Of a stretch of 64,000 bases of DNA, positions 2,891-56,059 are shown in pieces; within the stretch, counting starts at the first letter, position 1; the number at the start of each line of letters is the position of its first letter. The position numbers and the translations under genes were made by a program. Origin of the DNA: Ignavibacteriales bacterium (GTDB taxonomy: Bacteria > Bacteroidota > Ignavibacteria > Ignavibacteriales > SURF-24); the NCBI GenBank assembly GCA_036261625.1, contig DATAKL010000064.1:231-64230 (forward strand), read 5' to 3'. Under the pieces are notes generated by a model. The model was not told the DNA's origin and did not search any database. It worked only from the letters and a program-made list of their open reading frames with translations.

Positions 2891-3829
2891 ATGAAAAAAG
2901 CCATAGTATTCGTTTTGTTTCTTTTATTTCATCAGGCATCAGGGCAGAATATACCCGCCTATTATACTTACGACAAAGATCTTTCAAAATCGCTTCAGGA
3001 AATTGTAAACTCACTCGACCTGAACAAGAACTTTAACGTGGGTGAAGACGGCGAGGAACAGATCTCATTTGCCGTAATTGATCTTAACGGTCCCAAGCCG
3101 ATGATTGGCGGCGTAAACATGGATAACTTTATTTATCCAGCCAGCGTCTATAAAATGTATGTTGCCGCCCAGGTGCTTGCACAGGTAAGCGAAGGGAAAC
3201 ATTCCCTGCTTGAGCCCTATGTTCTCAAGGCACCCAACGATGTAGACAGCAGGACGGAGCTTAAAGATCCGCGCCCGGTTATAAAGGAAGGTGACACTCT
3301 GACCATAAATTACCTGCTGGATCTTATGATTACCAGGAGCGACAACTCTGCTGCCAACTGCATGATCGACATTGCCGGCAGACCCGCCATTAACGACATG
3401 ATGCACCGCTACGGATGGCAGGGAAGCGAAGTTACGAGAAAATACTTAAAAAGAAAATTTGAGGATCCGGGCTACGACACCGTGCGCGGCACCATGACGT
3501 CGGCTCTTCACGCAGCCGACTTTATGTACAGGATTTACACTAATCAGATGATCAATCCCTGGGTGAGTATGCAGATGAAGACATTCCTCGGGCGCCAGCT
3601 GGACAAGTCCAAGCTTTTCGCCGGGCTCCCGCCGAACGTAATGTATTACAACAAAACCGGGTGGTTCAGCTACTGGACAAACGACGTGGGCATTGTTGAC
3701 GACGGAAGGATAAGATACATAATTTCATGCTTCATTCCTCTGACCGAAGATCAGGCAGATCCAAAATTTAAGGAGATTTCCTCGCGCGTCTACAAGCTGA
3801 TATCCGAACGCCACAAAAAACAATCTTAA
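2891..3829 (+). CDS. Class A beta-lactamase-like serine hydrolase, secreted
   Basis: 312 aa with a signal peptide. Carries the SVYK (SxxK), SDN and KTG motifs in the class A order. Confidence 0.7.
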   Translation: MKKAIVFVLFLLFHQASGQNIPAYYTYDKDLSKSLQEIVNSLDLNKNFNVGEDGEEQISFAVIDLNGPKPMIGGVNMDNFIYPASVYKMYVAAQVLAQVSEGKHSLLEPYVLKAPNDVDSRTELKDPRPVIKEGDTLTINYLLDLMITRSDNSAANCMIDIAGRPAINDMMHRYGWQGSEVTRKYLKRKFEDPGYDTVRGTMTSALHAADFMYRIYTNQMINPWVSMQMKTFLGRQLDKSKLFAGLPPNVMYYNKTGWFSYWTNDVGIVDDGRIRYIISCFIPLTEDQADPKFKEISSRVYKLISERHKKQS

Positions 3830-3835
3830 TTTGCC

Positions 3836-3869
3836 ATGCAGGGGACTGTCGCAAAACCGTCCCCTGCAT
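3836..3869 (+). terminator. GC-rich hairpin right after the stop codon (possible terminator)
   Basis: Perfect 11-bp stem atgcaggggac/gtcccctgcat with a 12-nt loop, starting 7 nt after the TAA. The T-tract is weak. Confidence 0.45.
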
Positions 3870-3995
3870 TAAATCCTCCCAAAAATTTCCCCGTGTGATT
3901 TTCATCCTTTCCTTTTTGTCTGAAAATGATATTATTTAATAAAAGAGCGATCCCGCTGGAGAGGATGAGAATATAACAAAATAAGGGAGGGAAGC

Positions 3996-4157
3996 ATGTT
4001 GTACATATTCCTGTACCTGGCCGTGTTTGTCTTATGGGTTGTAATTGAGCTTGTGACTGCGCCAAAAGGTTATGAAGATGAAAATGGGTTTCACTACGGC
4101 ATTCCGCCGTCGGGTGACCTGAAAAGGGAGCTCCGAAAGAGCATTAATCTCAACTAA
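3996..4157 (+). CDS. Small membrane protein (53 aa), hypothetical
   Basis: Not in the ORF track (below its size cutoff). ATG lies 6 nt after an AGGGAGGGA RBS. One hydrophobic helix (MLYIFLYLAVFVLWVVIELV) is followed by a charged tail, and a terminator follows the gene. Confidence 0.5.
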   Translation: MLYIFLYLAVFVLWVVIELVTAPKGYEDENGFHYGIPPSGDLKRELRKSINLN

Positions 4158-4183
4158 TTTTCCAATTGATCAAAAATAAAAAA

Positions 4184-4218
4184 GGCTGTCTCCTGAACAA
4201 TCGGAGCCAGCCTTTTTT
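4184..4218 (+). terminator. Rho-independent terminator
   Basis: ggctgtctcc/ggagccagcc stem (1 mismatch) followed by TTTTTT. Confidence 0.6.
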
Positions 4219-4252
4219 ATTTAATGTCCTGCCCCGCCGCAAAAATAAAAAT

Positions 4253-4688
4253 CCAATGAAATCTGAGCCTTTAGAACGACGCAGTTAATAAGCCCGACTC
4301 ATAGTCGGGCGAAACCTCAGTAGCCCAGCGTTGCAAGTCCTCCTCCGGGGAGGACGCAGCAACCCTGGGTTAAGGAATCAAAAAATTCCCCTAGCGCCGT
4401 AGGTGCGGCATATAAGATCCCGATGTCTGGCGGATAATGCCCTGATTGGCGGATATTCCCATGGAATGTGAATTAAATTAAATCCCTATCGGATAAACCT
4501 GTTTGAACCCCATGCGTAAAATCTAATATGCCACCGCCTGACGGGGCTTTGGTGGGTTGTGGGGATCCGTTAACCCAGGGTTTTTCATCCCCTCACGGGG
4601 ATCTCAAACCCTGGGCTACTGATGTCTCGTCCTCCTTACGGAGGACTTACTGACAGCGTTATTCTAAATGCTCTGCTTTCATGGAATT
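4253..4688. repeat. Element A: long inverted-repeat structured element (REPIN-like, three hairpins per arm)
   Basis: The two arms are reverse complements in linear blocks, with GTAG at 4320-4323 mirrored by CTAC at 4616-4619. The embedded hairpins differ in sequence but stay self-complementary. Confidence 0.8.
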
Positions 4689-4696
4689 TGTTAAAT

Positions 4697-4722
4697 TAAA
4701 AAGCCCTTTCGGAGAAGGGCTT
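4697..4722 (-). terminator. Rho-independent terminator of the DUF4175 gene
   Basis: On the minus strand, aaagccctt-ctccga-aagggcttt is followed by a TTTTTAATTT run. Confidence 0.6.
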
Positions 4723-4730
4723 TGTTAAAT

Positions 4731-7700
4731 TTATTTGCTGGTGTCCTGCTGAAGCGACTCGTAGTATTTGCGGATCAGGTTTTCGTAATCCTTCGAGTAG
4801 CCTTCCTGAACCGCCCTCATGAGCTCGTCTTTTAAGCGGTTGTGAGATTTCTGAAGGTTTAATTCCGCGGGCGACTTCTGCGCTATCTCCTTGCCCGAGG
4901 TGGATTCCCTTTCCTTTTCAAAATCACGGTCGTTGATCGATTTCTGCGCATCCAATAGCTTCGACAGGATCCTCTCCTGCTTCTGTATCACTTCGTCGTT
5001 CAATTTCTCGGTCTTCATGTCGGAAACCACTTCCTGCATCTCTTTTAAGACGTTGTCCAAATTTGCCGGAAGCTTTTTCGACTCTCCCGACATTTTGCTT
5101 TCCCGGTTTAATTCCTCCAAAGACTTTCTTATCATCTCCTGCTGCTGCGCAAGACGCTGCATCTGGGCCTGCTGCTGAAGCGAAAGCGAACCCTGATTCA
5201 GCTGCTGAGTCATGTTGTTCAGATTCATCTGCTGCTGCCCCATCTTCTGAAGCTGCTGCATCATGGACATCATGCCCGAGCCTGAACCCTGACCGTTTAA
5301 CATGTTTTCCATCGTGTGCTTTAAGATCTCGGCCGATTCATTCAAAGCACTCATGGTCGACTTCTGCTTGTCGGCGGCTGAACTGCCGTTCCTCATCTGA
5401 AGATCGCTCATGGACTGACGCATTCCCAGCTGCGCTTTGCCCAGGGCCTGCCCCAGCTCGGGCGAAATTGCAAATGTCTTCTGCGAAAGCTTGCCTAACT
5501 GTCCCATTATCTTATCCATTCCGCTCTGAAGACTGCTCTGCTTTTTAGCATTTTCATTTAACTGCTGACTGCCGGGATCCATTTTCTGCGTCTGGTTCTT
5601 TAAGGCTTCCTGCTCTTTGGAAAGCGTAAGAAGATTATCCAGAATTTTCCTCATCTCGTTAAATGCCTGGCGCTGGTTCTGCTGCTGCATCTGCTGCTGC
5701 ATCTGCTGCATCTTCTTTTTCATTTGCTTCATGTTCTGAGCCAGGTTCTGCTGCTTCTGCTGAGCCTGCTGCTTCTGCCCCTGCTGAATATTTTCTTGAG
5801 CCTGCTGCGACATCTGATCGTTCTGCTGCTTGTCGAACTCCTCCTGCGCCTGCTTCATCTTGTCCTTCGGCATGTCTTCAAATTCCTGCATCTTTTCCTT
5901 CAGGTCATCCATCTTCTTCTCAAGATCCTTCAGGTCATCCGACATGTCCTTCTGCTTTTCTGAAAGATCCTGCTTCTGATTATTGTCGTTAAGGTTGCTT
6001 TTCTGAGTCTCCTGCTTTAAGTCTTCTGCCCTTTTTGTCAGGTCTTCAGTTCTTTTTAATATCTCATCCATCTTCTGTTCGACCTGTGTTCTCTTTAAGA
6101 GCTTGAGAGTTCTTTCAATGCTCTTCTTGAACATGTCCTCGTCGAACTTCATCTGTTCCATATTCTGCTGAACGTTATCGCGGTTCATCTGCTGCAGGGC
6201 CTGCTGGAATTTCTCCATGGCCTTCTTCATCTCCTCGCTGCTCAGCTGCTGGAAGAGGTTCTGCAGCTCCATGTACTTCTGCAGGGTTTCCTTCGAAAGG
6301 AGGTTATTCTGCTGCATGTCGTTCTGCATCTTGGCCATGTCTTTTCTCACCTCATCAACCTTATGCTCCAGCTCGTCGAACTTCTGCAGGGCCTTGTCGA
6401 GTCTTTCCTTTTCCTGCCAGGTAATGTCTTTTTTGTCCTGCTTTAAGTCCTGGCTCATCTTCTCCAGATTGTCTTTGAGCTTCTGCGCCTCGGTAAGGGT
6501 CTCGGTTAGTTTTTTTTCTGCCGACTCCTGAGTGTTGTCTGCCTGATGGAAGAGTGCATCGAGTGAAGGAACCCGGACGTTAAACAGTGCGGTTTTAGCC
6601 GACTTGGGACCGCTTACGTTATCATTGTCAAAAACCTCGATGTAGTAGGTTACCACGTCCTGAGCCTTAAGCTTTAAGGGGGAGAGGTTCCATATATAAT
6701 TTACATCCTGCTCTTTAGTGCCTCTTTGAATCGGAATTTCAAGCGTCTGGAACTCATCGGAGGGTTTCTGGACCTTTGATGCGCTCAGGCGGTAATGGAC
6801 AAGAAGCCTTGTAAAACCGAAGTCGTCGCTTATTCTGAGTAAGAGTGGTACGCGGTCGTCTTCGGAAAGTGTAACGTCCTTGTTCGGCGTTATAAACTCT
6901 ATAACAGGATAATTATCCGTAAGTGCCTTAATTGAAAAGCTGATCGGGTTATCGTTGTTATGCCCGTCGAGGTCTGTAAGCTGAATGGAATAGTTTACAT
7001 CCTTCTTAATCCTGTAAGTCCCTGATGCATTTTTCCCGCTGACTGAAAGGGGGGCCTCAGTGGAATCGGTAAAGACAAGTCTGGCACCTTTAAGATCTTT
7101 TGTTGAAAGTATGTCGAACCTGATCTGGCTTCCAGGTAAAGATGTTACGTTTCCGTTATCCTTCTGCTCAACTGTCTGCTCCCGGGAGTAGGCAGGAGGC
7201 GTTACGGTTACGTCCATTGCCCTTATTATAGGCTTATCTACAACCGTAATATTGAACTGGCGGCTTTGCACCTCTTCGGCTGAAACGTAATAGGTAAAAG
7301 AGCTCCTGACGGCAGGAATTTCAAAATAGTAAGTTCCGGAAGAATCGGGGTGCAGGTCCCTCTCGCTAAACTCTGCCTGCTCGACATACTTAACTGCAAG
7401 AGAAACATTCTTAGGCTTCTGTCCAAAAACTTTAATTCTTATCTTTACATCCTCTCCCTTTGTTACTTCCTGGTCGCCCGGCTTAACATCGAAAGTAAAT
7501 CTTGCAGGCGGTATGAATTCGCTGCTGAAATTTGTAAGTCTGTATGAAGCGGCTCTAAGGGAAGAAAACGCGGTAAAGAGAATGGCCGCAAAGAGCACAA
7601 CTGCCGAAAGATAGCGGAACATTTTTTTTGTTTTTGTAAAGCTTACGGCTTCGTTAAAGTTTACAGACTTTGTTTTAAGATATACCTGCCGGAATGCTGC

Positions 7701-8099
7701 ATCGGCAAGGTTCTGCGAGTAGTATTTTCCACCGCCGTTATCCTTTACCTCAATAAGCTGCATTGCATTAAGGAGTTCATCCTTAATTGAAGGGAAGAAG
7801 TTTCCGATTTTCCGTGCCGTTTCATTATAGTCCGGGCGGCTGAAAATATTAAAGTATTTGGAAAAAGGATAAAGGAAGAAGTATCCAAATGACCCGAAAG
7901 AGACTATTAGGAAGAGAAGGAACAGTGCGGTTCTTACCGCAGAGGAAAAATTCCCGGCCCATTCAAGAAGCGACAGAAAGAGAAACAGTGAAACTGCAGC
8001 AATGAGCGTAAAAGCAAGTCCTGTAAGTCCCAGGTTCAGATATTCCCGTTTCGAGAGCTTGTCGAATCTATTTAATATTTCTTTGTAGTAAGAGTTCAT
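4731..8099 (-). CDS. DUF4175-like membrane protein with a very long Q/M/K/E-rich coiled-coil region
   Basis: 1122 aa. N-terminal TM helices are followed by an Ig-like beta-rich middle, then about 550 aa of low-complexity coiled coil (QQMQQQMQQQNQ etc.). It lies immediately downstream of a DUF4159-like gene. Confidence 0.65.
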   Translation of the reverse strand: MNSYYKEILNRFDKLSKREYLNLGLTGLAFTLIAAVSLFLFLSLLEWAGNFSSAVRTALFLLFLIVSFGSFGYFFLYPFSKYFNIFSRPDYNETARKIGNFFPSIKDELLNAMQLIEVKDNGGGKYYSQNLADAAFRQVYLKTKSVNFNEAVSFTKTKKMFRYLSAVVLFAAILFTAFSSLRAASYRLTNFSSEFIPPARFTFDVKPGDQEVTKGEDVKIRIKVFGQKPKNVSLAVKYVEQAEFSERDLHPDSSGTYYFEIPAVRSSFTYYVSAEEVQSRQFNITVVDKPIIRAMDVTVTPPAYSREQTVEQKDNGNVTSLPGSQIRFDILSTKDLKGARLVFTDSTEAPLSVSGKNASGTYRIKKDVNYSIQLTDLDGHNNDNPISFSIKALTDNYPVIEFITPNKDVTLSEDDRVPLLLRISDDFGFTRLLVHYRLSASKVQKPSDEFQTLEIPIQRGTKEQDVNYIWNLSPLKLKAQDVVTYYIEVFDNDNVSGPKSAKTALFNVRVPSLDALFHQADNTQESAEKKLTETLTEAQKLKDNLEKMSQDLKQDKKDITWQEKERLDKALQKFDELEHKVDEVRKDMAKMQNDMQQNNLLSKETLQKYMELQNLFQQLSSEEMKKAMEKFQQALQQMNRDNVQQNMEQMKFDEDMFKKSIERTLKLLKRTQVEQKMDEILKRTEDLTKRAEDLKQETQKSNLNDNNQKQDLSEKQKDMSDDLKDLEKKMDDLKEKMQEFEDMPKDKMKQAQEEFDKQQNDQMSQQAQENIQQGQKQQAQQKQQNLAQNMKQMKKKMQQMQQQMQQQNQRQAFNEMRKILDNLLTLSKEQEALKNQTQKMDPGSQQLNENAKKQSSLQSGMDKIMGQLGKLSQKTFAISPELGQALGKAQLGMRQSMSDLQMRNGSSAADKQKSTMSALNESAEILKHTMENMLNGQGSGSGMMSMMQQLQKMGQQQMNLNNMTQQLNQGSLSLQQQAQMQRLAQQQEMIRKSLEELNRESKMSGESKKLPANLDNVLKEMQEVVSDMKTEKLNDEVIQKQERILSKLLDAQKSINDRDFEKERESTSGKEIAQKSPAELNLQKSHNRLKDELMRAVQEGYSKDYENLIRKYYESLQQDTSK

Positions 8100-13926: not shown

Positions 13927-13941
13927 AATATATTCCGGCCT

Positions 13942-14086
13942 GAATAGCCACGGCCTTCAGGCCGTGGGCAGGGAGATCCCCCTCCCCAATTTGGGCTTTA
14001 GCCCCCGATCATCTCCGGAAAATCTGTGGCTAAAGCCGGGAAGATTTTGGGAATATTTCCCCACGGCCTGAAGACCGTGGCTATTC
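13942..14086. repeat. Element B1: ATAG-hairpin doublet with a nested inner hairpin
   Basis: GAATAGccacggcc-ttca-ggccgtgg at 13942-13967 is mirrored by ccacggcc-tgaa-gaccgtggCTATTC at 14061-14086. The inner stem is ggctttagcc (13994-14003) pairing with ggctaaagcc (14028-14037). Confidence 0.8.
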
Positions 14087-14120
14087 ATGGGAAATCGCAA
14101 TATCCGGCACATCCCGGATT

Positions 14121-14192: not shown

Positions 14193-17100
14193 ATGAAGTT
14201 CTTCTCTACTAAGTTAAGCGGAAGCTTAATTGCTCTTATTTTATTATCCACACTCCTGCATGCCGAAGGCGGACAGGCAGACAGAAAAAACCTGCATAAA
14301 ACCTCAGCCGCCACATGGCCTTATGCCTACATGAATATTAATAATATCTCGACTGTTATTTTTGGCGACGGCCAGGCGGACATTAATCCACTTCGTAATG
14401 CAGGCTTTGTCTACCCCAAAGGAAGCAATAAGACTGCTGTATTTGAATCGGGCTTTCTGTGGGGAGGAATAGTAAACAATGAAATTAGAGTTAATGGAAG
14501 TTCATACAGCTCTGGCCTGAAGCCGGGAAAGATCCTGCCCGGGGGAGTGCCCGAGGACCCCAAAAATGCCCGCGTATACCGCGTCAGGAAAGATTACAAA
14601 ACGGCAGACCTCTCTTCTGAAATAAGCGACAATGAGGGTACTGAAAGCGAAATCCGGGAACGCTATGATAATGACTGGAAAGAGTGGCCTGCCCTTGACG
14701 GCGCGCCCTATGAAGACGTTGACCATAACGGAGTCTATGATCCCGCAGTTGATATCCCCGGTGAACCGGGTGCCGACGAGACAATATGGTTTGCGGCCAA
14801 CGACCTGGATGAAGCAGCTTCAAAAAGTCTGTTTGGTTCAAAGCCGATCGGAATTGAAATGCAGTGCACCGTTTATGCTTTCAGGAATCCGGGCATACTA
14901 AGAAACATGATCTTTAAGAGATATAAGCTGATCAATAAAAGCAGCACCACAGTGGACAAAATGTATACTATGGCATGGGGTGATTTTGATATAGGAGACG
15001 CAACAGATGACTTCGAAGGATGCGACACACTCCTTGACCTGGGCTACACTTATAATGCGGTTCCTAAGGACATGCTTTACCAGGATACTCCTCCTGCTGC
15101 CGGCTTTGCAGTCCTGCAGGGACCCGCTGTAAAAGGCTCTCTGTCTGACACGGCATATCTGAATAACAGGAAGCTTCCCGGGATGATGAACCTTCCCATG
15201 ACTTCATTTAGCAATGTTTATGTGGAATTGGCGTGGGAGGAGCCTTCTCCGATAGGCGCGAATGAATACTATAGATTTATGCAGGGTAAACAGGGTTCTA
15301 TTGACTTATTCTTTCCGGTCTTGGATCAATTTGGCGGAGGAACTACCAGATTTCCTTATTCAGGCGATCCTGTTGCGGGAACAGGTTATCTTGACGGCAT
15401 ATTATACCCGAAAGGCGACCGTCGCATGGGCGTAAATTCAGGTCCCTTTACAATGGCTCCCGGCGATACGCAGGAGGTTGTCTTGGCTGAAATTGCCGCC
15501 GGCACCACTCCGGGGGTGAGCAATCTTCAGGCGGTAACACTTCTTAAAAATTCCACAAGCTTTGCCCGGGAGTTTTACCATGAGGGCAGATCAGGCATCA
15601 AATCCATAAATTCCCCGGTTTTGACTGCAGGAGAATATGATAAGGAAATTGTACTTAACTGGGGAGACGACCAGGCCTCAGTAAGTAAAACAGAATCTTT
15701 TGATTTTCTTTCCCACAAATTCGAGGGCTATAATGTCTATCAGCTCCCCTATGCCGGAGCAAAAATAAGCGAGGGAAAAAGAATAGCTGTCTTCGACAGA
15801 ATTGACAGCATAAAAATAATTTACAGTGAAGTCATAAACTGGGATACAGGAGCCCAGGAACGCCTGGCTCAGCAGTACGGAAAAGACTCGGGCATTCAGA
15901 GATTCTTAAGAATAAATGAGGATGCCTACACAAAGTTTCCTCTTATAAACGGAAAGAAGTATTACTTTGCCGTTACGGCATATACCTATAGCCCGAACCT
16001 GGACTTCTCGAATATGGAAAGCGATCCCACATATGTGGAAGTAATCCCCCACACGAACGACCCCGGCGTGGTCTATAATTCCTCTTTCGGTGATACGCTT
16101 CGGGCAAGTCACAATTCAGGTAAAAGCGACGGAGAGGTGATCCCGATTGTGGTTGAACCAGGAAAGCTTACGGGCGACGAGTACAGCGTGGAATTTGAAT
16201 CAACAGACAGCCTGCCCACCTGGAAAGTAGTGGACCTGACAAAGAATAAAACCATTCTTAGCAATCAGACTGCTCATTCGGAAAAGGATGGATACCCTGT
16301 TGCAGATGGAATTCTTTTTAAGGTAATCAGCCATTCTCCCGGGGTGAAAACTGACGATGCGTATACAACTGGCGACAGTTCAAAGTGGGGCTGGAGAATT
16401 CCTGCCGGAAAGCGCAGATTCACATGGAGCGGCGCCAATGGACTGGGACTTGAAGGCTTCCGCGGGGCAATCGGAGCCGGCGCCACATGGCTGGGTTCCT
16501 CAGTTGGTTACAGCAATCTGAAAAACGTTCTTCTTAAACTTGCTGCAACTGACACAAGCGGTAATGCCAGCCCGAATGATTCCAATGTGTCATATGCATA
16601 CAGGTATGTGCGCGCAGCCTCACATGATCCTGCAAGACCTGAATTTGCTCCTTTCATCAAAAACAAATACAACGGCACCTACGGATTTCAGGATTTCACC
16701 AGGAGCTGCCCGCTTGCTGCATACGACTTTGAAGATCCTCAGCATCCGAGAAGACTTGCCGTGGGTTATCTTGAAAACAATAGCTCAAACGGTTTGCTGG
16801 ATGGCAAGTACTGGCCTCCGGAAATGGGCACAGACAACACCGGCGTTACCAGTCCCAGGGAATGGCTCTTTATCTTTGATAAGGCATATAGCGAAACAGA
16901 GGACCAGAGCTTGGAAGGCGACCTCCTGGGTGAAAAACCCTATCCTGTACTTCTTCAATGCACATTCAACAGGAATTCCAACTCCTGGCCCGGGGGAGAT
17001 GAGTTTGAAATTTATGTGAACCATATTTTTACACCTGATGATAAGTTTACTTTCAAGTCCATTGCTCCTTCATTTGACGGACAGTCGGCCAAAGCAGATG

Positions 17101-17417
17101 TGGAGAGGATAAACGTGTTTCCCAATCCCTATTACGGAGCTCTTTTGCATGATGTTAATAACATTCAGAGACTTGTAACATTCAGCCATCTGCCTGTAAA
17201 AGCCACGATCAGAATATTCAACCTGGCAGGACAATTGGTAAGAACAATATATAAGGATACACCGGGGCAGTTTGCCTCGTGGGATCTTCTGAACGAACAT
17301 AATCTCCAGGCAGCAAGCGGATTATATCTGGTACACATTGATATGCCTGATCTGGGGAAAACAAAGATCCTGAAGCTTGCCATAATACAGGAACAGATTG
17401 TGCCTGAGAGGTTTTAA
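14193..17417 (+). CDS. Large secreted protein with a T9SS type-A C-terminal sorting domain (paralogue 1)
   Basis: 1074 aa with a signal peptide and a C-terminal FPNPYY...IRIFNLAGQLVRTIY...ASGLYLVHIDM...KLAIIQ sorting-domain pattern. Paralogous to 17719..20277. Confidence 0.8.
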   Translation: MKFFSTKLSGSLIALILLSTLLHAEGGQADRKNLHKTSAATWPYAYMNINNISTVIFGDGQADINPLRNAGFVYPKGSNKTAVFESGFLWGGIVNNEIRVNGSSYSSGLKPGKILPGGVPEDPKNARVYRVRKDYKTADLSSEISDNEGTESEIRERYDNDWKEWPALDGAPYEDVDHNGVYDPAVDIPGEPGADETIWFAANDLDEAASKSLFGSKPIGIEMQCTVYAFRNPGILRNMIFKRYKLINKSSTTVDKMYTMAWGDFDIGDATDDFEGCDTLLDLGYTYNAVPKDMLYQDTPPAAGFAVLQGPAVKGSLSDTAYLNNRKLPGMMNLPMTSFSNVYVELAWEEPSPIGANEYYRFMQGKQGSIDLFFPVLDQFGGGTTRFPYSGDPVAGTGYLDGILYPKGDRRMGVNSGPFTMAPGDTQEVVLAEIAAGTTPGVSNLQAVTLLKNSTSFAREFYHEGRSGIKSINSPVLTAGEYDKEIVLNWGDDQASVSKTESFDFLSHKFEGYNVYQLPYAGAKISEGKRIAVFDRIDSIKIIYSEVINWDTGAQERLAQQYGKDSGIQRFLRINEDAYTKFPLINGKKYYFAVTAYTYSPNLDFSNMESDPTYVEVIPHTNDPGVVYNSSFGDTLRASHNSGKSDGEVIPIVVEPGKLTGDEYSVEFESTDSLPTWKVVDLTKNKTILSNQTAHSEKDGYPVADGILFKVISHSPGVKTDDAYTTGDSSKWGWRIPAGKRRFTWSGANGLGLEGFRGAIGAGATWLGSSVGYSNLKNVLLKLAATDTSGNASPNDSNVSYAYRYVRAASHDPARPEFAPFIKNKYNGTYGFQDFTRSCPLAAYDFEDPQHPRRLAVGYLENNSSNGLLDGKYWPPEMGTDNTGVTSPREWLFIFDKAYSETEDQSLEGDLLGEKPYPVLLQCTFNRNSNSWPGGDEFEIYVNHIFTPDDKFTFKSIAPSFDGQSAKADVERINVFPNPYYGALLHDVNNIQRLVTFSHLPVKATIRIFNLAGQLVRTIYKDTPGQFASWDLLNEHNLQAASGLYLVHIDMPDLGKTKILKLAIIQEQIVPERF

Positions 17418-17430
17418 TATTTTGATGTTT

Positions 17431-17490
17431 GAATAGCCACGACCTGAATAGCCACGACCTGAATAGCCACGACCTGAATAGCCACGACCT
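17431..17490. repeat. Tandem repeat: 4 x 15 bp (GAATAGCCACGACCT)
   Basis: Four perfect head-to-tail copies. The last one is the 5' half of the left hairpin of element B2. Confidence 0.9.
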
Positions 17491-17616
17491 TCAGGTCGTG
17501 GAGCCATGATAAAAATCTCTCTCGGCTTTAGCCACAGATTTTCCGTGTAGGATCTGGGGCTAAAGCCCGAATATTTTTGAAATCATTAAACCACGACCTG
17601 AAGGTCGTGGCTATTC
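17431..17616. repeat. Element B2: ATAG-hairpin doublet, copy of B1 with compensatory stem changes
   Basis: ccacgacc-ttca-ggtcgtgg (17483-17501) is mirrored by ccacgacc-tgaa-ggtcgtggCTATTC (17591-17616). The inner stem is 17524-17533 pairing with 17558-17567. Confidence 0.8.
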
Positions 17617-17640
17617 ATAGAAAAATTCGCATTTTGCATT

Positions 17641-17718: not shown

Positions 17719-20277
17719 ATGAAGTTTTCCCCTGATAAATTAAGCATAATTGCGCTCCTCTTGTTATCTACAGCGGCTTATGCTGAAGGCGGTTTCAAAG
17801 ACGGAAAAAATCTAAATAAAACCGCATCCAATCCCTGGCCATACACACACATGACCATTAACAATGTAACAACCATAGTTTATGCCAATGGAGTGGCAGA
17901 TGTGGATTCCAACACCTCTGATGGAAAAGCAGGTTTTATTTATCCGAAGGGAACCACTAAGACAGTAGCAAATGGGTCGGGACTCATCTGGGGCGGCATA
18001 GTAAATGAGGAAAAAATAGCTAACGGAAGTAAATATAACTCGGGCTTAAGACCGGGAAAGATCCTGCCCGGGGGAACACCGGAAGATCCGGCAAAAGCCC
18101 GCATTTACAGGGTCAGAAGAGATTATAAGACAGCCAGCCTGTTCACTGAAATAGAGTGCAGTGAGGGTACTGAAAGTGAAGTAAGAAACCGCTATGACAA
18201 GGACTGGAAGGAGTGGCCTGCTTCTGACGGTGCTCCGTATGAAGACGTAAATCACGACGGACAGTATGATCCTGAAATTGATATCCCCGGTGAACCCGGT
18301 GCAGATCAGACTGTCTGGTTTGCGGCAAATGATCTGGATGAGAAAACTTCCAGGGCTTTTTTCGGCTCGAAGCCGATCGGAATAGAAATGCAGTGCACAG
18401 TATTCGCTTATAGAAATCCGGGTTCACTGAAAAATATGATCTTTAAAAGGTATAAGCTGATCAATAAAAGCATTGATACGGTCAAAAACATGTATACAAT
18501 GGTCTGGGGTGATTTTGATATTGGAGACAAGTGGGATGACTTCGCCGGATGCGACTCACTGCTTAATCTGGGATACTGCTATAATGCCCAGTCATCGGAT
18601 AATATTTACGGAAATACTCCGCCGGCCGCTGGTTTTGTACTCCTGCAGGGACCCGCTGTAGAAGGCTCTCTGTCAGACACGGCATATCTGAATGGAAGAA
18701 AAATTCCCGGAATGAAAAACCTTTCCACGACATCAGTGAGCTATCTGATTATGAGGGATGATTGGTGGCAGTTCGAACCTCCCCATACAGGTGACTGGGC
18801 TGCACGCTATCATTACCTTTTTATGCAGGGGTATATGTATTGGATTCTTAGTTATTTTCCTGTTCCTTCGGCATTGGGCGGGGGAGTGACAAAGTTTCCA
18901 TATTCAGGAGACCCCGCTAAGAAGACAGGCTATCTTGACGGCATATTATACCCAAGAGGCGACCGCTGTGTGGGCCTAAATTCCGGTCCTTTTAATTTTG
19001 CCCCGGGCGATACGCAGGAAGTTGTCTTTGCTGAAATTGCCGCCGGCGGCACTCCGGGCGTAGATTATCTTCAGGCGGTAACGCTCCTTAAAGATTATGC
19101 CGGTTTCGTAAAAGATCTTTTCAGGAATGGAAGAGAGTATATGAAGCTTGTTGATCCGCCGGCTTTAAGTGCAGAAGGGTATGACAGGCAGATTGTGCTT
19201 AACTGGGGAGGCGATCAGGCCGGCATAAATAAAACAGAAAATTATAATTTTCTTTCCTATAAGTTCGAGGGTTACAATGTTTATCAGCTCCCTTATCCGG
19301 GGGCAAAAATAAGCGATGGGAAAAGATTAGCTGTCTTTGACATTGATGACAGCATAAAAAACGTTTTCGGCAAAGTAACTGATTGGGATACCGGAGTGGA
19401 AAATATTGTTCCGCAGCAGTTCGGAACGGACTCCGGAATTCAAAGATACCTGAAAATAACGGAGGACGCTTTTACAAATTTTCCCCTTGTAAACGGAAAG
19501 AAGTACTACTATGCTGTTACCGCCTATGCGGTGGACCCGGATAAGGACCCGAGTAACCTTGAAGGCATTCCTGTCATTATTGAAGCAGTCCCTCACACGA
19601 ATGACCCCGGCGTGGTCTACAATTCCTCTTTCGGTGATACGCTTCAGGTAAGCCACACTTCAGGAAAAAGCGGCGGACGGGTAGTTGCGCTTGTAATTGA
19701 GCCCGGAAAACTTACGGGTGATGAGTACAGCGTGGAGTTCGATACCTTAAATGGCCTGACACAATGGAAAGTTATTGATCTTACAAAGAATAAAACTCTG
19801 CTTGGCAGTCAGACTGCTCATAAAGAAAAGGATGGATACCCGATTATCGATGGAATTCTCATTAAGGTAATTAGTCCTTCTTATGACGTAAAACCCGATG
19901 ATAAATTTACATTTAAGTCCACAGCTCCTTCATTTGACGGCCTGTCGGCCAAGATAGATGTGGATAGGATAAACGTTTTTCCTAATCCATATTATGGGGG
20001 TAATTCCCAGGAATTTAGCAGGTATCAGAAATATGTAACATTTAATCATCTGCCGGTTAAAGCTACAATTAGGATATTCAACCTGGCAGGACAGCTTGTA
20101 AGAACAATCTATAAGGATACGCCGGGACAGTTTGCAACGTGGGACTTGTTGAATGAACATAACTTTCAGGCAGCAAGCGGGTTGTACGTGGTATACATTG
20201 ATATGCCCGACCTTGGTAAGACAAAGATCCTCAAGCTTGCAGTTATTCAGGAGCAGATTGTGCCTGAGAGGTATTAA
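17719..20277 (+). CDS. Large secreted protein with a T9SS type-A C-terminal sorting domain (paralogue 2)
   Basis: 852 aa, collinear with paralogue 1 except for a segment of about 220 aa that is absent here. Has a signal peptide and the same C-terminal sorting-domain pattern. Confidence 0.8.
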   Translation: MKFSPDKLSIIALLLLSTAAYAEGGFKDGKNLNKTASNPWPYTHMTINNVTTIVYANGVADVDSNTSDGKAGFIYPKGTTKTVANGSGLIWGGIVNEEKIANGSKYNSGLRPGKILPGGTPEDPAKARIYRVRRDYKTASLFTEIECSEGTESEVRNRYDKDWKEWPASDGAPYEDVNHDGQYDPEIDIPGEPGADQTVWFAANDLDEKTSRAFFGSKPIGIEMQCTVFAYRNPGSLKNMIFKRYKLINKSIDTVKNMYTMVWGDFDIGDKWDDFAGCDSLLNLGYCYNAQSSDNIYGNTPPAAGFVLLQGPAVEGSLSDTAYLNGRKIPGMKNLSTTSVSYLIMRDDWWQFEPPHTGDWAARYHYLFMQGYMYWILSYFPVPSALGGGVTKFPYSGDPAKKTGYLDGILYPRGDRCVGLNSGPFNFAPGDTQEVVFAEIAAGGTPGVDYLQAVTLLKDYAGFVKDLFRNGREYMKLVDPPALSAEGYDRQIVLNWGGDQAGINKTENYNFLSYKFEGYNVYQLPYPGAKISDGKRLAVFDIDDSIKNVFGKVTDWDTGVENIVPQQFGTDSGIQRYLKITEDAFTNFPLVNGKKYYYAVTAYAVDPDKDPSNLEGIPVIIEAVPHTNDPGVVYNSSFGDTLQVSHTSGKSGGRVVALVIEPGKLTGDEYSVEFDTLNGLTQWKVIDLTKNKTLLGSQTAHKEKDGYPIIDGILIKVISPSYDVKPDDKFTFKSTAPSFDGLSAKIDVDRINVFPNPYYGGNSQEFSRYQKYVTFNHLPVKATIRIFNLAGQLVRTIYKDTPGQFATWDLLNEHNFQAASGLYVVYIDMPDLGKTKILKLAVIQEQIVPERY

Positions 20278-20793: not shown

Positions 20794-20839
20794 ATGGTGT
20801 TTTTCGTAGTGGGCATTAATCGGACATCGTTAAAAAAAT

Positions 20840-21185
20840 CATTTCAGTTGTCTTCAAATGCCGCGGACAGCGGCATAGTATCGATAGCCCCGGGTGACAA
20901 ACCCCGGCAGGGGTGCCGGAACCCGGGGTTAGGATACAAAAAAATCAGAGCCGCGGCAGCCGCGACATGTTCCGATTCTACGGCAATTTGCTCAATAAAA
21001 TCAAATCGTCATTTGTGGGGTATCAAATTTGAATCATGGATTCACTCCATTCCAAAACATGGCGCGGCTGACCGCGGCGCATGGGATTGTGGGGGGATTC
21101 CGTGGTCCCGGGGTTCAATCGTCTGCCAGAGGCGGACTCAATCACCCTGGGCTATCAACATGAGGCCGCTGACCACGGCCTTAAA
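20840..21185. repeat. Element C: long inverted-repeat structured element, same family as element A
   Basis: ATAG at 20884-20887 is mirrored by CTAT at 21152-21155. It has the same block order as element A (TAGCCCCGGGT...AACCCGGGGTTAGGATAC; GGGATTGTGGGGGGATTCCG...CCCGGGGTT...CACCCTGGGCTAT) but different stems. Confidence 0.75.
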
Positions 21186-21244
21186 ACCAAAGACATATTA
21201 ATAATTTTATTGACGTTTAGGCCATAAAATATCTGATTTAAATT

Positions 21245-41545: not shown

Positions 41546-41662
41546 AAAACCACTGACGTGGTTTTTGGGTGTGGGGGATTTCCTTACCCAGGGTTCCATC
41601 ATCCCGACACTTGTCGGGATTTGAAACCCTGGGCTACAGACATAGAACCACTCCGTGGTTCG
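41546..41662. repeat. Element E: solo arm of the element A/C family
   Basis: aaaaccac-TGAC-gtggtttt, then TTGGGTGTGGGGGATTTCCTTACCCAGGGTT, an inner hairpin atcccgac-actt-gtcgggat, AAACCCTGGGCTAC, and aaccac-tcc-gtggtt. This matches the right arms of elements A and C block for block. Confidence 0.75.
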
Positions 41663-41713
41663 GAGGTTATAATCCTCAAATTCCTCTAAATCAATTCTCT
41701 TGAATACCCGCAC

Positions 41714-47817: not shown

Positions 47818-47956
47818 GTAGGGGCGAGCGGCGCTCGCCCGGGACGGGAAAAAATTATAACTCACAAATTGAAATTTCCGAATGTTTATGGGTAAACCAC
47901 ATTGCATGGGTGTATTCGTAATGTCAAACGGATGGGCGAGCGCCGCTCGCCCCTAC
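47818..47956. repeat. Element F: GTAG-hairpin doublet
   Basis: GTAG-gggcgagc-ggc-gctcgccc (47818-47840) is mirrored by gggcgagc-gcc-gctcgccc-CTAC (47934-47956). About 93 nt of AT-richer centre, between convergent genes. Confidence 0.8.
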
Positions 47957-55928: not shown

Positions 55929-56059
55929 GTAGGAGGTCTGGCAGGATGTCAGGAACCACTTCCTGACATCCTTCGCGAGCCATTCTGGCGAGCGGGATTA
56001 TTTTCATGGGATGGGGCACATGGAATGGCGCCAGGAAATGGTTCCTGGCGCCGCACTAT
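55929..56059. repeat. Element G: GTAG/CTAT hairpin doublet
   Basis: GTAG at 55929 is followed by ggatgtcaggaa-ccac-ttcctgacatcc (55944-55971). This is mirrored by ggcgccaggaa-atgg-ttcctggcgcc (56027-56052) and CTAT (56056-56059), which overlaps the stop of the upstream gene. Confidence 0.7.

Follow-up and report, generated by a model that had tools for sequence, protein, structure and literature searches.

Anatomy of element A

Element A is a non-coding inverted repeat of ~440 bp at positions 4249-4689 of a 64-kb stretch of an Ignavibacteria genome (hereafter the window), where it lies between a 53-aa open reading frame (ORF) and a convergent gene for a 1122-aa DUF4175 protein (Table 1). A sequence-only reading of this DNA had placed the element between two terminators, and these proved to be the intrinsic terminators of the two genes, at 4174-4222 and 4700-4723. 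The upstream one marks the left boundary of the element, and the flank is homologous to that of a related genome (L116) up to ~4248. The junctions read ..aaaataaaaat/CCAATG.. and ..CATGG/aatttgtt.., with no direct repeat that would represent a target-site duplication, and no promoter-like site was found in 3800-5000.

A repeat finder returned four arm pairs, at 4249-4295/4643-4689 (47 nt, 77%), 4307-4354/4585-4632 (48 nt, 73%), 4361-4379/4564-4582 (89%) and 4407-4418/4521-4532 (92%). Full-length alignment of the left arm with the reverse complement of the right arm gave 70% identity, and the arms are therefore homologous outside the hairpins too, in agreement with the earlier description of A as an inverted repeat with homologous arms. 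A profile of the arms used with nhmmer matched the left arm at 4248-4418 (E = 7.7e-36) and the right arm at 4520-4690 (E = 2.7e-40).

Each arm is ~170 bp long and carries three hairpins, and the two arms are inverted around a variable centre. From the outside inwards, an arm consists of a ~40-nt terminal sequence, an outer hairpin (HP3), a 9-nt spacer, the tetranucleotide GTAG, a long hairpin (HP2), a linker and an inner hairpin (HP1). The four hairpins listed in the sequence-only reading are all present where it had placed them, with perfect stems of 6-8 bp, its "inner hairpin" being the tip of HP2, and, as it had stated, two positions that are not equivalent have the stem GTCCTCC/GGAGGAC. 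The direct repeat that it had seen in the centre was also located, its two copies being 82% identical. GTAG abuts the foot of HP2 directly on its outer side, at 4320-4323 and, as CTAC, at 4616-4619 in the right arm. The blocks CCCAGGGTT and AACCCTGGG had been described as linear blocks shared by the arms; they are not primarily arm-to-arm pairings, as each is a 7-bp interrupted palindrome (CCCNGGG) and the two pair together within one arm to form the foot of HP2. The invariant foot of the long hairpin is GTAG-CCCNGGGT/ACCCN'GGG. The linker differs between the arms of A: that of the right arm is G-rich and contains TGTGGGG, whereas that of the left arm is GGAATCAAAAAATTCCCC and shows a small GGAAT/ATTCC hairpin in the fold. 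HP1 looks like a second, degenerate copy of the "hairpin-N9-GTAG" unit that is formed by HP3, its spacer and GTAG. When each arm was folded alone as single-stranded DNA (ssDNA), the three hairpins formed on either strand, with z-scores of -4.9 to -6.5 and a stability that none of 200 shuffles reached, so that the folding check proposed in the sequence-only reading found the hairpins thermodynamically favoured.

Table 1. Coordinates of element A, of its flanking terminators and of the other family members in the window
Feature	Positions	Strand	Remarks
Upstream intrinsic terminator of the 53-aa ORF (3996-4157)	4174-4222	+	Inverted repeat I3, 20 nt, 95% complementary, then T-run; outside A
Left terminal sequence AAATCCAATGAAATCTGAGCCTTTAGAACGACGCAGTTAATAA	4249-4291		Kept at outer ends of related elements; consensus ATGAAATGTGAGCATTTAGAATTACGCAATCACTAAG; arm alignment A4, nhmmer
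Left outer hairpin HP3, GCCCGACT-CAT-AGTCGGGC	4292-4310		8-bp stem; with spacer 4311-4319 and GTAG forms a "hairpin-N9-GTAG" unit
Left long hairpin HP2	4320-4369		GTAG at 4320-4323, base stem CCCAGCGTT/AACCCTGGG; ssDNA fold, pattern matches, covarying central stem base
Left HP2 inner hairpin, GTCCTCC-TCCGG-GGAGGAC	4337-4355		7-bp stem
Left A-rich linker GGAATCAAAAAATTCCCC (other strand GGGGAATTTTTTGATTCC)	4370-4393		Left-arm variant of the G-tract; alignment A4, L032 sequence
Left inner hairpin HP1, GCGCCGTAGGTGCGGC	4394-4409		Weak 4-5 bp stem; same variant at the homologous position of the L002 left arm
Variable centre	4410-4529		19-nt-spaced direct repeat TGGCGGATAATGCCCTG (4428-4444), TGGCGGATATTCCCATG (4447-4463), family D2
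Right inner hairpin HP1, GCCACCGCCTGACGGGGCT	4530-4548		Fold
Right G-rich linker with TGTGGGG (4558-4564)	4549-4573	+	Canonical arm type
Right long hairpin HP2	4574-4619		Base stem CCCAGGGTT/AACCCTGGG, CTAC tag at 4616-4619 (GTAG on the other strand)
Right HP2 inner hairpin, ATCCCC-TCAC-GGGGAT	4587-4602		6-bp stem
Spacer and right outer hairpin HP3, GTCCTCC-TTAC-GGAGGAC	4620-4646		HP3 at 4629-4646, 7-bp stem; "CTAC-N9-hairpin" unit
Right terminal sequence TTACTGACAGCGTTATTCTAAATGCTCTGCTTTCATGGAATTT	4647-4689		Inverted counterpart of 4249-4291; repeat pair I1, alignment, nhmmer
Downstream intrinsic terminator of the convergent DUF4175 gene (4731-8099, minus strand)	4700-4723	-	Outside A
Element B, second full doublet	20826-21224		Between convergent genes; different stems, same left/right asymmetry as A
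Element C, single arm	41546-41688	+	HP1 41546-41565, TGTGGGG 41570, HP2 41587-41633, CTAC, HP3 41645-41661

Related copies and Y1 transposase genes

According to the arm profile, the window contains exactly five arms, namely the two arms of A, the two arms of a second doublet (B), which are 45-51% identical to those of A, and a single arm (C). The gapped module pattern TGTGGGG..CCCNGGGTT..ACCCNGGGCTA has three matches in the window, with 0 expected, and occurs at 31 loci, against ~0.5 expected by our own estimate, in a one-genome-per-species collection of bacterial contigs (loci with L numbers). GTAG or ATAG stands at the foot of HP2 in B, C and these 31 loci as well, all copies are intergenic, and some loci hold tandem arrays of modules (L028, L031 and L012). 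The 31 loci are labelled Planctomycetota, Acidobacteriota, Verrucomicrobiota, Myxococcota, Bacteroidota, Ignavibacteriota, Desulfuromonadaceae and Bacillota, which makes at least eight phyla by label. Some labels are doubtful: loci L002, L012-L014, L017, L021, L023, L024 and L027 belong to the metagenome-assembled genomes (MAGs) MAG164, "Syntrophomonadaceae", and MAG223, "Acidobacteriota" (PRJNA951521). The HslU protein of the window falls in a 90% cluster made up mostly of Ignavibacteria MAGs together with MAGs labelled Acidobacteriota and Syntrophomonadaceae from the same project, so these labels look wrong and the phylum count for the close relatives of A is unreliable there.

In L002, the arms of the same type of doublet flank a minus-strand ORF of 166 aa, which encodes a Y1 HUH transposase (Pfam Y1_Tnp, 1.1e-26; NCBIfam transpos_IS200, 75 bits with a cut-off of 55), and a 91%-identical Y1 gene has the same arrangement in L032. 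In both loci the canonical TGTGGGG arm lies upstream of the Y1 gene and a T-rich variant arm, like the left arm of A, lies downstream. A and B keep this arm asymmetry and hence correspond to the cassette minus its gene, with the centre of A (4410-4529) at the position that the Y1 gene takes in L002 and L032. A Y1 gene is also found among modules in L028, and a Y1 fragment next to a module in L010.

The Y1 proteins contain the motifs DHVH, WQ and YILNQEDHH and a conserved C-terminal tail. In alignment A3, the proteins are 150-168 aa long and the invariant residues are D54 H55 H57, W94 Q95 and Y114-I115-x-x-Q118-E119-x-x-H122. Subclass 1.2 of the TnpAY1 proteins (Quentin et al. 2018) is described from Bacteroidetes and Cyanobacteria as having DH[IV]H, WQ, Y---Q--HH, a length of ~150 aa and a conserved C-terminal tail (PMC6006769), and our proteins match it by motif, as judged from the motif table of that paper (its Table 1). 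A metagenome scan with the Y1 protein alignment gave 80 further loci at 46-59% identity, which share DH[VM]H, WQ, Y---Q--HH and the conserved tail with L002 and L032. The named matches to Y1 are mostly from Ignavibacteriales and Bacteroidota, and each Y1 cluster is found on one or few contigs. This distribution also resembles that of subclass 1.2, from which our loci differ in that one lineage adds the long GTAG-CCCNGGG hairpin.

Small hairpins accompany these genes more widely. Of 70 metagenome loci, 52 have a unit of the form "hairpin-N5-13-[AG]TAG" with a GC-rich hairpin in the 250 nt before the Y1 gene, and 47 of 75 have its mirror downstream, with none in 29 control stretches taken 2.25-2.5 kb away. 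Repeats common to both flanks were present in 54 of 66 loci (L002 included as positive control). A typical unit reads GCTCC-GTA-GGAGC-GAACTGTTT-GTAG, and the outer hairpins HP3 of A fit this form with their 9-nt spacers and GTAG/CTAC. Subclass 1.2 has been listed as "REP: no" (PMC6006769), that is, as lacking repetitive extragenic palindromes (REPs), and this listing is not borne out by our loci, as hairpin-GTAG units flank most such genes. The hairpin and the GTAG of the small units are 9-10 nt apart, so that these units would presumably escape a search that requires GT[AG]G immediately at the foot of the hairpin. IS200 Group 3 (Bertels et al. 2017), a "RAYT-like" group with no duplicates, absence from plasmids and abundant flanking 16-mers (PMC5581495), may be the same group as subclass 1.2.

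The orthologous site of A differs between related genomes. In the syntenic region of an Ignavibacteriales genome, MAG203 (L117), the same two genes are separated by 87 nt that hold one bidirectional terminator and no element, and this genome carries the family elsewhere (L026). A third genome, L116, has an extra gene and a different set and arrangement of family units at the site. A short-read assembly of the same strain as the window breaks inside A.

Several variations were seen among the copies. The G-rich linker between HP1 and HP2, which reads GGGGCTTTGGTGGGTTGTGGGG in A, is expanded in L021 (4228-4290) and also in L026, L014, L009, L017 and L001, in the form of runs such as (GGGGTTT)x7 that resemble a telomere-like G-quadruplex-forming tract. 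Short tandem repeats with a period of 19-25 nt are found in the centres and differ from copy to copy, examples being GGCGGATAWT in A (4428-4463), GATATYCGGCAWATTCGTG in L032 (10660-10740) and ATTCACCCGRTTAAATGGTTCAT in L026 (2160-2315); those of A and L032 adjoin the arm type that sits downstream of the Y1 gene, and such repeats may be protein-binding iterons. L028 (OW818658.1, a 7.9-Mb chromosome; 615-2005) has three tandem modules with a 183-nt period upstream of its Y1 gene and a fourth in the same orientation downstream, an arrangement unlike that of the Ignavibacteria cassettes. Modules from outside Ignavibacteria often have, in place of a hairpin in the loop of the long hairpin, a conserved GGGTT-YCGCTCG-(optional small hairpin)-CTCGCT-TCACCC sequence that is common to several phyla (L004, L006, L008, L010, L019, L022, L028, L029 and L031).

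Conserved pairing and the nature of element A

MAFFT alignments A2 and A5 put stems of variable length out of register, and we therefore used an alignment-free test instead of a covariance model, counting perfect stems at the expected place in 47 modules and comparing the counts with those from shuffles. A perfect stem of at least 5 bp was present at HP3 in 43 modules (9% from shuffles, binomial P ~4e-40), at HP1 in 33 (14%, P ~5e-18) and at the tip of HP2 in 26 (5%, P ~4e-21), and each hairpin position showed 29-32 different stem sequences, with 29 for HP3. The RNAalifold pairs in an unsupervised alignment of 41 modules revealed that the central base pair of the HP2 foot covaries, being A-U in 15, G-C in 12, C-G in 9, U-A in 1 and G-U in 1, and broken in 3 of the 41. 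The earlier claim that pairing is kept while the sequence is replaced consequently extends to the whole family. A further suggestion, that stems behave as exchangeable cassettes, found no such backing; the stem types GTCCTYC, GTCATCC, GCCCGAC, GCACC and GCCCC do recur at different positions and in different genomes, but this equally fits drift around a shared G-Y-C-C consensus.

The copies are strongly diverged. Identity among 25 arms ranges from 45 to 82% with no near-identical pairs, and the median within genomes (59%; 63 pairs, maximum 77%) is close to that between genomes (61%). The left arm of A is 68% identical to the left arm of L002 and the right arm 70% identical to its L002 counterpart, compared with the 70% between the two arms of A. 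As identity within genomes is about the same as between genomes and no near-identical pairs occur, the copies are old and not homogenised.

We propose that element A is probably a gene-less copy of a REPtron-like cassette, in which a composite of REP-type DNA hairpins, resembling bacterial interspersed mosaic elements (BIMEs) or REPINs, is associated with a subclass 1.2 IS200-like Y1 (HUH) ssDNA transposase. The sequence-only reading had been right about the homologous arms, the favoured hairpins and the retained pairing; it had called the conserved blocks linear, but they are not unstructured, and it had not recognised a REP-type composite with a Y1 enzyme. PMC2817692, PMC3116915 and PMC3733652 describe the REP/BIME/REPIN systems of E. 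coli, Pseudomonas and Stenotrophomonas, with their REP-associated tyrosine transposases (RAYTs), as extragenic G-C-rich stems with GTAG at the foot that occur singly, as inverted doublets or in clusters, and a REPtron as a transposase gene flanked by the same repeats in inverted orientation. REPs with GTAG stems opening with three G-C pairs, their dimers and clusters, and Y1 genes between long inverted repeats were thus already known (PMC3733652 and PMC6006769), as were REP families with compensatory stem variants or sub-families and with long self-complementary inner loops (PMC3733652).

Element A shares with REPs the GT[AG]G placed directly at the hairpin foot, where it abuts a stem beginning with three G-C pairs, and the intrastrand pairing with complementary changes, which is seen here as covariation and local ssDNA folds. 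Like REPINs (Bertels and Rainey 2011), A and B each consist of two inverted arms, and, as with the cognate single-copy Y1 gene of REPINs, the Y1 gene of the related genomes L002 and L032 lies between arms of the family. The differences are of size and divergence: REPs are units of 20-40 bp and REPINs of ~100 bp, whereas the GTAG hairpin of A measures 46-50 nt inside a ~170-bp arm, the doublet is 440 bp long with three hairpins per arm, the two GTAG hairpins are ~200 nt apart, wider than is typical, and the arms have conserved terminal sequences of 35-40 nt beyond the hairpins. REPIN populations are near-identical, whereas the A family is not. REPs are extragenic and often exceed 100 copies per genome; for the A family, five arms, all intergenic, lie in the 64 kb of the one window analysed. 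Element A is an unusually large, diverged relative of REP/REPIN repeats and not a new kind of element; what is unusual about it is the arm size with its three-hairpin mosaic, the IS200-like enzyme subclass, the invariant foot across phyla and the strong divergence with structure kept.

A likeness also exists with the TIRtrons and their TIRYT transposases (Di Nocera et al. 2013, PMC3733652), in which a Y1 gene lies between long terminal inverted repeats (TIRs), some of them with self-complementary tracts, that belong to dispersed repeat families occurring as dimers and clusters. TIRYTs, however, are mostly of subclass 2.1, with helix-turn-helix tails and a GGGGWSAS motif (PMC6006769), whereas the A family goes with a subclass 1.2 type of enzyme and has GTAG-footed REPs in its arms. 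A miniature inverted-repeat transposable element (MITE) of a DDE transposon was considered and rejected, as A has inverted ends but no target-site duplication and the full-length form encodes a Y1 and not a DDE enzyme. An integron attC site, CRISPR repeats and a hammerhead core (CTGATG, 4619-4624) were also rejected, since these motifs are not conserved in other copies.

The way in which such copies would arise is suggested by the association of arms and gene, together with what is known of E. coli TnpAREP and IS608. The hairpins could extrude from DNA in single-stranded form, such as that at replication forks, and a Y1 enzyme encoded elsewhere in the genome would recognise the hairpin shape together with the conserved GTAG-tagged foot. 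Cutting and rejoining at a cleavage site there would create, move or delete copies in intergenic DNA, and in this manner the enzyme could mobilise or maintain the family, with or without benefit to the host. Recognition by shape and an invariant foot would leave the other stems free to change as long as they still pair, and intrastrand template-switch repair of near-palindromes would speed the fixation of compensatory changes.

Several points weigh against this proposal. The L002 protein scores below the cut-off of the NCBIfam family REP_Tyr_transpos (NF047646; 33.5 vs 80 bits), and its catalytic motif is Y---Q and not the Y---NP of class 2 RAYTs. The window contains no Y1 gene, so a cognate enzyme in this genome is assumed, and tblastn with the Y1 protein found no Y1 remnant in A or anywhere in the 64 kb. 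The modules flanking the Y1 gene of L028 are direct and not inverted repeats. The big CCCNGGG hairpin, searched for as a regular expression, occurs in 0 of the 80 metagenome Y1 loci, which suggests that it is specific to a sub-lineage or was separately acquired. The copies give no sign of recent transposition, which sets them apart from classical REPIN populations, and the empty site in L117 could stem from a deletion rather than mark the state before an insertion.

Retention of the architecture despite high divergence, with identity within genomes equal to that between them, would also be expected of a structural element that the host has exapted and keeps by selection at intergenic sites independently of any transposase. 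Such an element could insulate convergent units, back up terminators, stabilise mRNA 3' ends or bind a nucleoid or topology protein, as is reported for E. coli REP/BIME; binding of several proteins and action in mRNA turnover and termination are reported for these repeats in PMC2817692 and PMC3733652. The arms of A being as close to the corresponding L002 arms as to each other implies that they have persisted for long with no concerted evolution, hairpins occur much more often than expected by chance, and A and B both lie between convergent genes. Against this, an element with a good intrinsic terminator on either side should receive little transcription, a related genome has a single terminator and no element at the orthologous site, and the site content differs in three related genomes, which misfits a fixed locus-bound function. 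We consider such a transposase-independent element unlikely, but a host-level role is compatible with the data and with a Y1 origin, and may coexist with the cassette that we propose.

The same presence or absence at the orthologous site would follow if A were a decayed selfish insertion sequence (IS), that is, a copy with an internal deletion, similar to a MITE or a palindrome-associated transposable element (PATE), of an autonomous IS200-family element with long inverted ends and no relation to domesticated REP-RAYT systems. The Y1 protein lies above the NCBIfam IS200/IS605 cut-off (75 vs 55 bits) and below the REP-associated one, full-length and gene-less forms have the same termini, and no target-site duplication is visible at the ends of A, as expected for HUH transposition. 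Members of the IS200/IS605 family and their PATE-like derivatives indeed share with the A family an HUH Y1 enzyme, subterminal hairpins that serve as ssDNA recognition elements, and gene-less non-autonomous copies without target-site duplications. However, classical IS200/IS605 ends (subclass 1.1) are not inverted repeats and have their hairpins on the same strand (PMC6006769), whereas A ends in inverted repeats of 170 bp. The copies of such an IS are near-identical within one genome, but none of the 25 arms has a near-identical copy, which differs from young MITEs as well as from REPIN populations. Each Y1 cluster occurs on one or few contigs, and PMC6006769 characterises subclass 1.2 as low in copy number and unlike an IS. 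No sequence similarity links the centres of gene-less copies to one another or to the flanks of the Y1 gene, so that these copies are not simple deletion derivatives of one master copy, and we regard a decayed selfish IS as quite improbable.

The very stable RNA fold of the whole element (z = -10.6 on the plus strand and -10.2 on the minus strand), in whose minimum-energy structure the arms pair, could suggest a large structured non-coding RNA (ncRNA) gene folding as a rod with side hairpins. Base pairs covary, and one G-T pair in the right HP2 of B would be a G-U wobble on the plus strand. The folds of the two strands, however, are equally stable (-199.6 and -201.1 kcal/mol), A is enclosed by two terminators with no promoter-like site in 3800-5000, the centre of the L002 and L032 copies holds a protein gene, and no Rfam family matches: Rfam 15 gave 0 matches at gathering score in the whole window, and at E values up to 10 the region 4100-4800 gave chance-level matches only, terminator look-alikes. 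The rod was also rejected as a conserved structure, as arm-to-arm pairing of the conserved blocks yields C-T and G-G mismatches in B, where local pairing holds and RNAfold predicts local hairpins; the covarying central base supports local stems, and single arms (C) and tandem arrays (L028, L031 and L012) exist. An ncRNA gene is accordingly very improbable.

A broader, though rather unlikely, extension of the REPtron-like cassette is that subclass 1.2 Y1 proteins would head a widespread REPtron-type system of their own (hairpin, 9-10 nt, GTAG), one branch of which would have built the three-hairpin GTAG-CCCNGGGT module found in at least eight phyla. The copies are never near-identical, yet all hairpins are kept, and on this view they would reflect an ancient association, passed on vertically, that maintains structure and not sequence, with a domesticated system for processing ssDNA in place of an ordinary transposon.

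Other features of the window and significance

Two related genomes (L116 and L117) have the 53-aa ORF that precedes A at the same position and with a conserved sequence, and it probably encodes a genuine small membrane protein. The genes near A include one whose protein has a type IX secretion sorting domain, and the best named matches of a beta-lactamase-like neighbour are from Ignavibacteria. GC skew across the window is noisy.

The window holds other repeats as well. A second family, at 13935-14090 and 17430-17625, forms inverted doublets of ATAG-CCACGRCC-TTCA-GGYCGTGG hairpins with a shared centre (GGCTTTAGCC../..GGCTAAAGCC), and a 15-mer, TGAATAGCCACGACC, is repeated four times in tandem at 17432-17480. 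Each copy precedes one of two large paralogues (14193-17417 and 17719-20277), and the promoter-region sequence that follows is conserved between the copies as well. A classical small REP doublet of REPIN form is found at 47818-47955, in the intergenic region before a 1548-aa gene, and reads GTAG-GGGCGAGC-GGC-GCTCGCCC and, 94 nt further on, inverted GGGCGAGC-GCC-GCTCGCCC-CTAC. At 55943-56052 lie two long hairpins whose stems, of 13 and 11 bp (AGGATGTCAGGAA.. and GGCGCCAGGAA..), are perfect and have a common core, CAGGAA/TTCCTG; the end of a short-read contig from the same strain (L113) falls here, at ~56028, as would be expected at a repeat.

REP/REPIN-RAYT systems are the best-studied repeats that persist in bacterial lineages, and most of what is known of them concerns Proteobacteria and class 2 RAYTs. 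Element A extends this kind of repeat to Ignavibacteria and other bacteria of the FCB group, to an IS200-like Y1 subclass that had been listed as lacking REPs, and to a larger, mosaic and diverged unit in which stems change and hairpins stay. As these elements break short-read assemblies and resemble large structured RNAs, recognising them avoids false ncRNA calls, and the family provides a concrete DNA substrate on which the action of subclass 1.2 Y1 enzymes can be tested.

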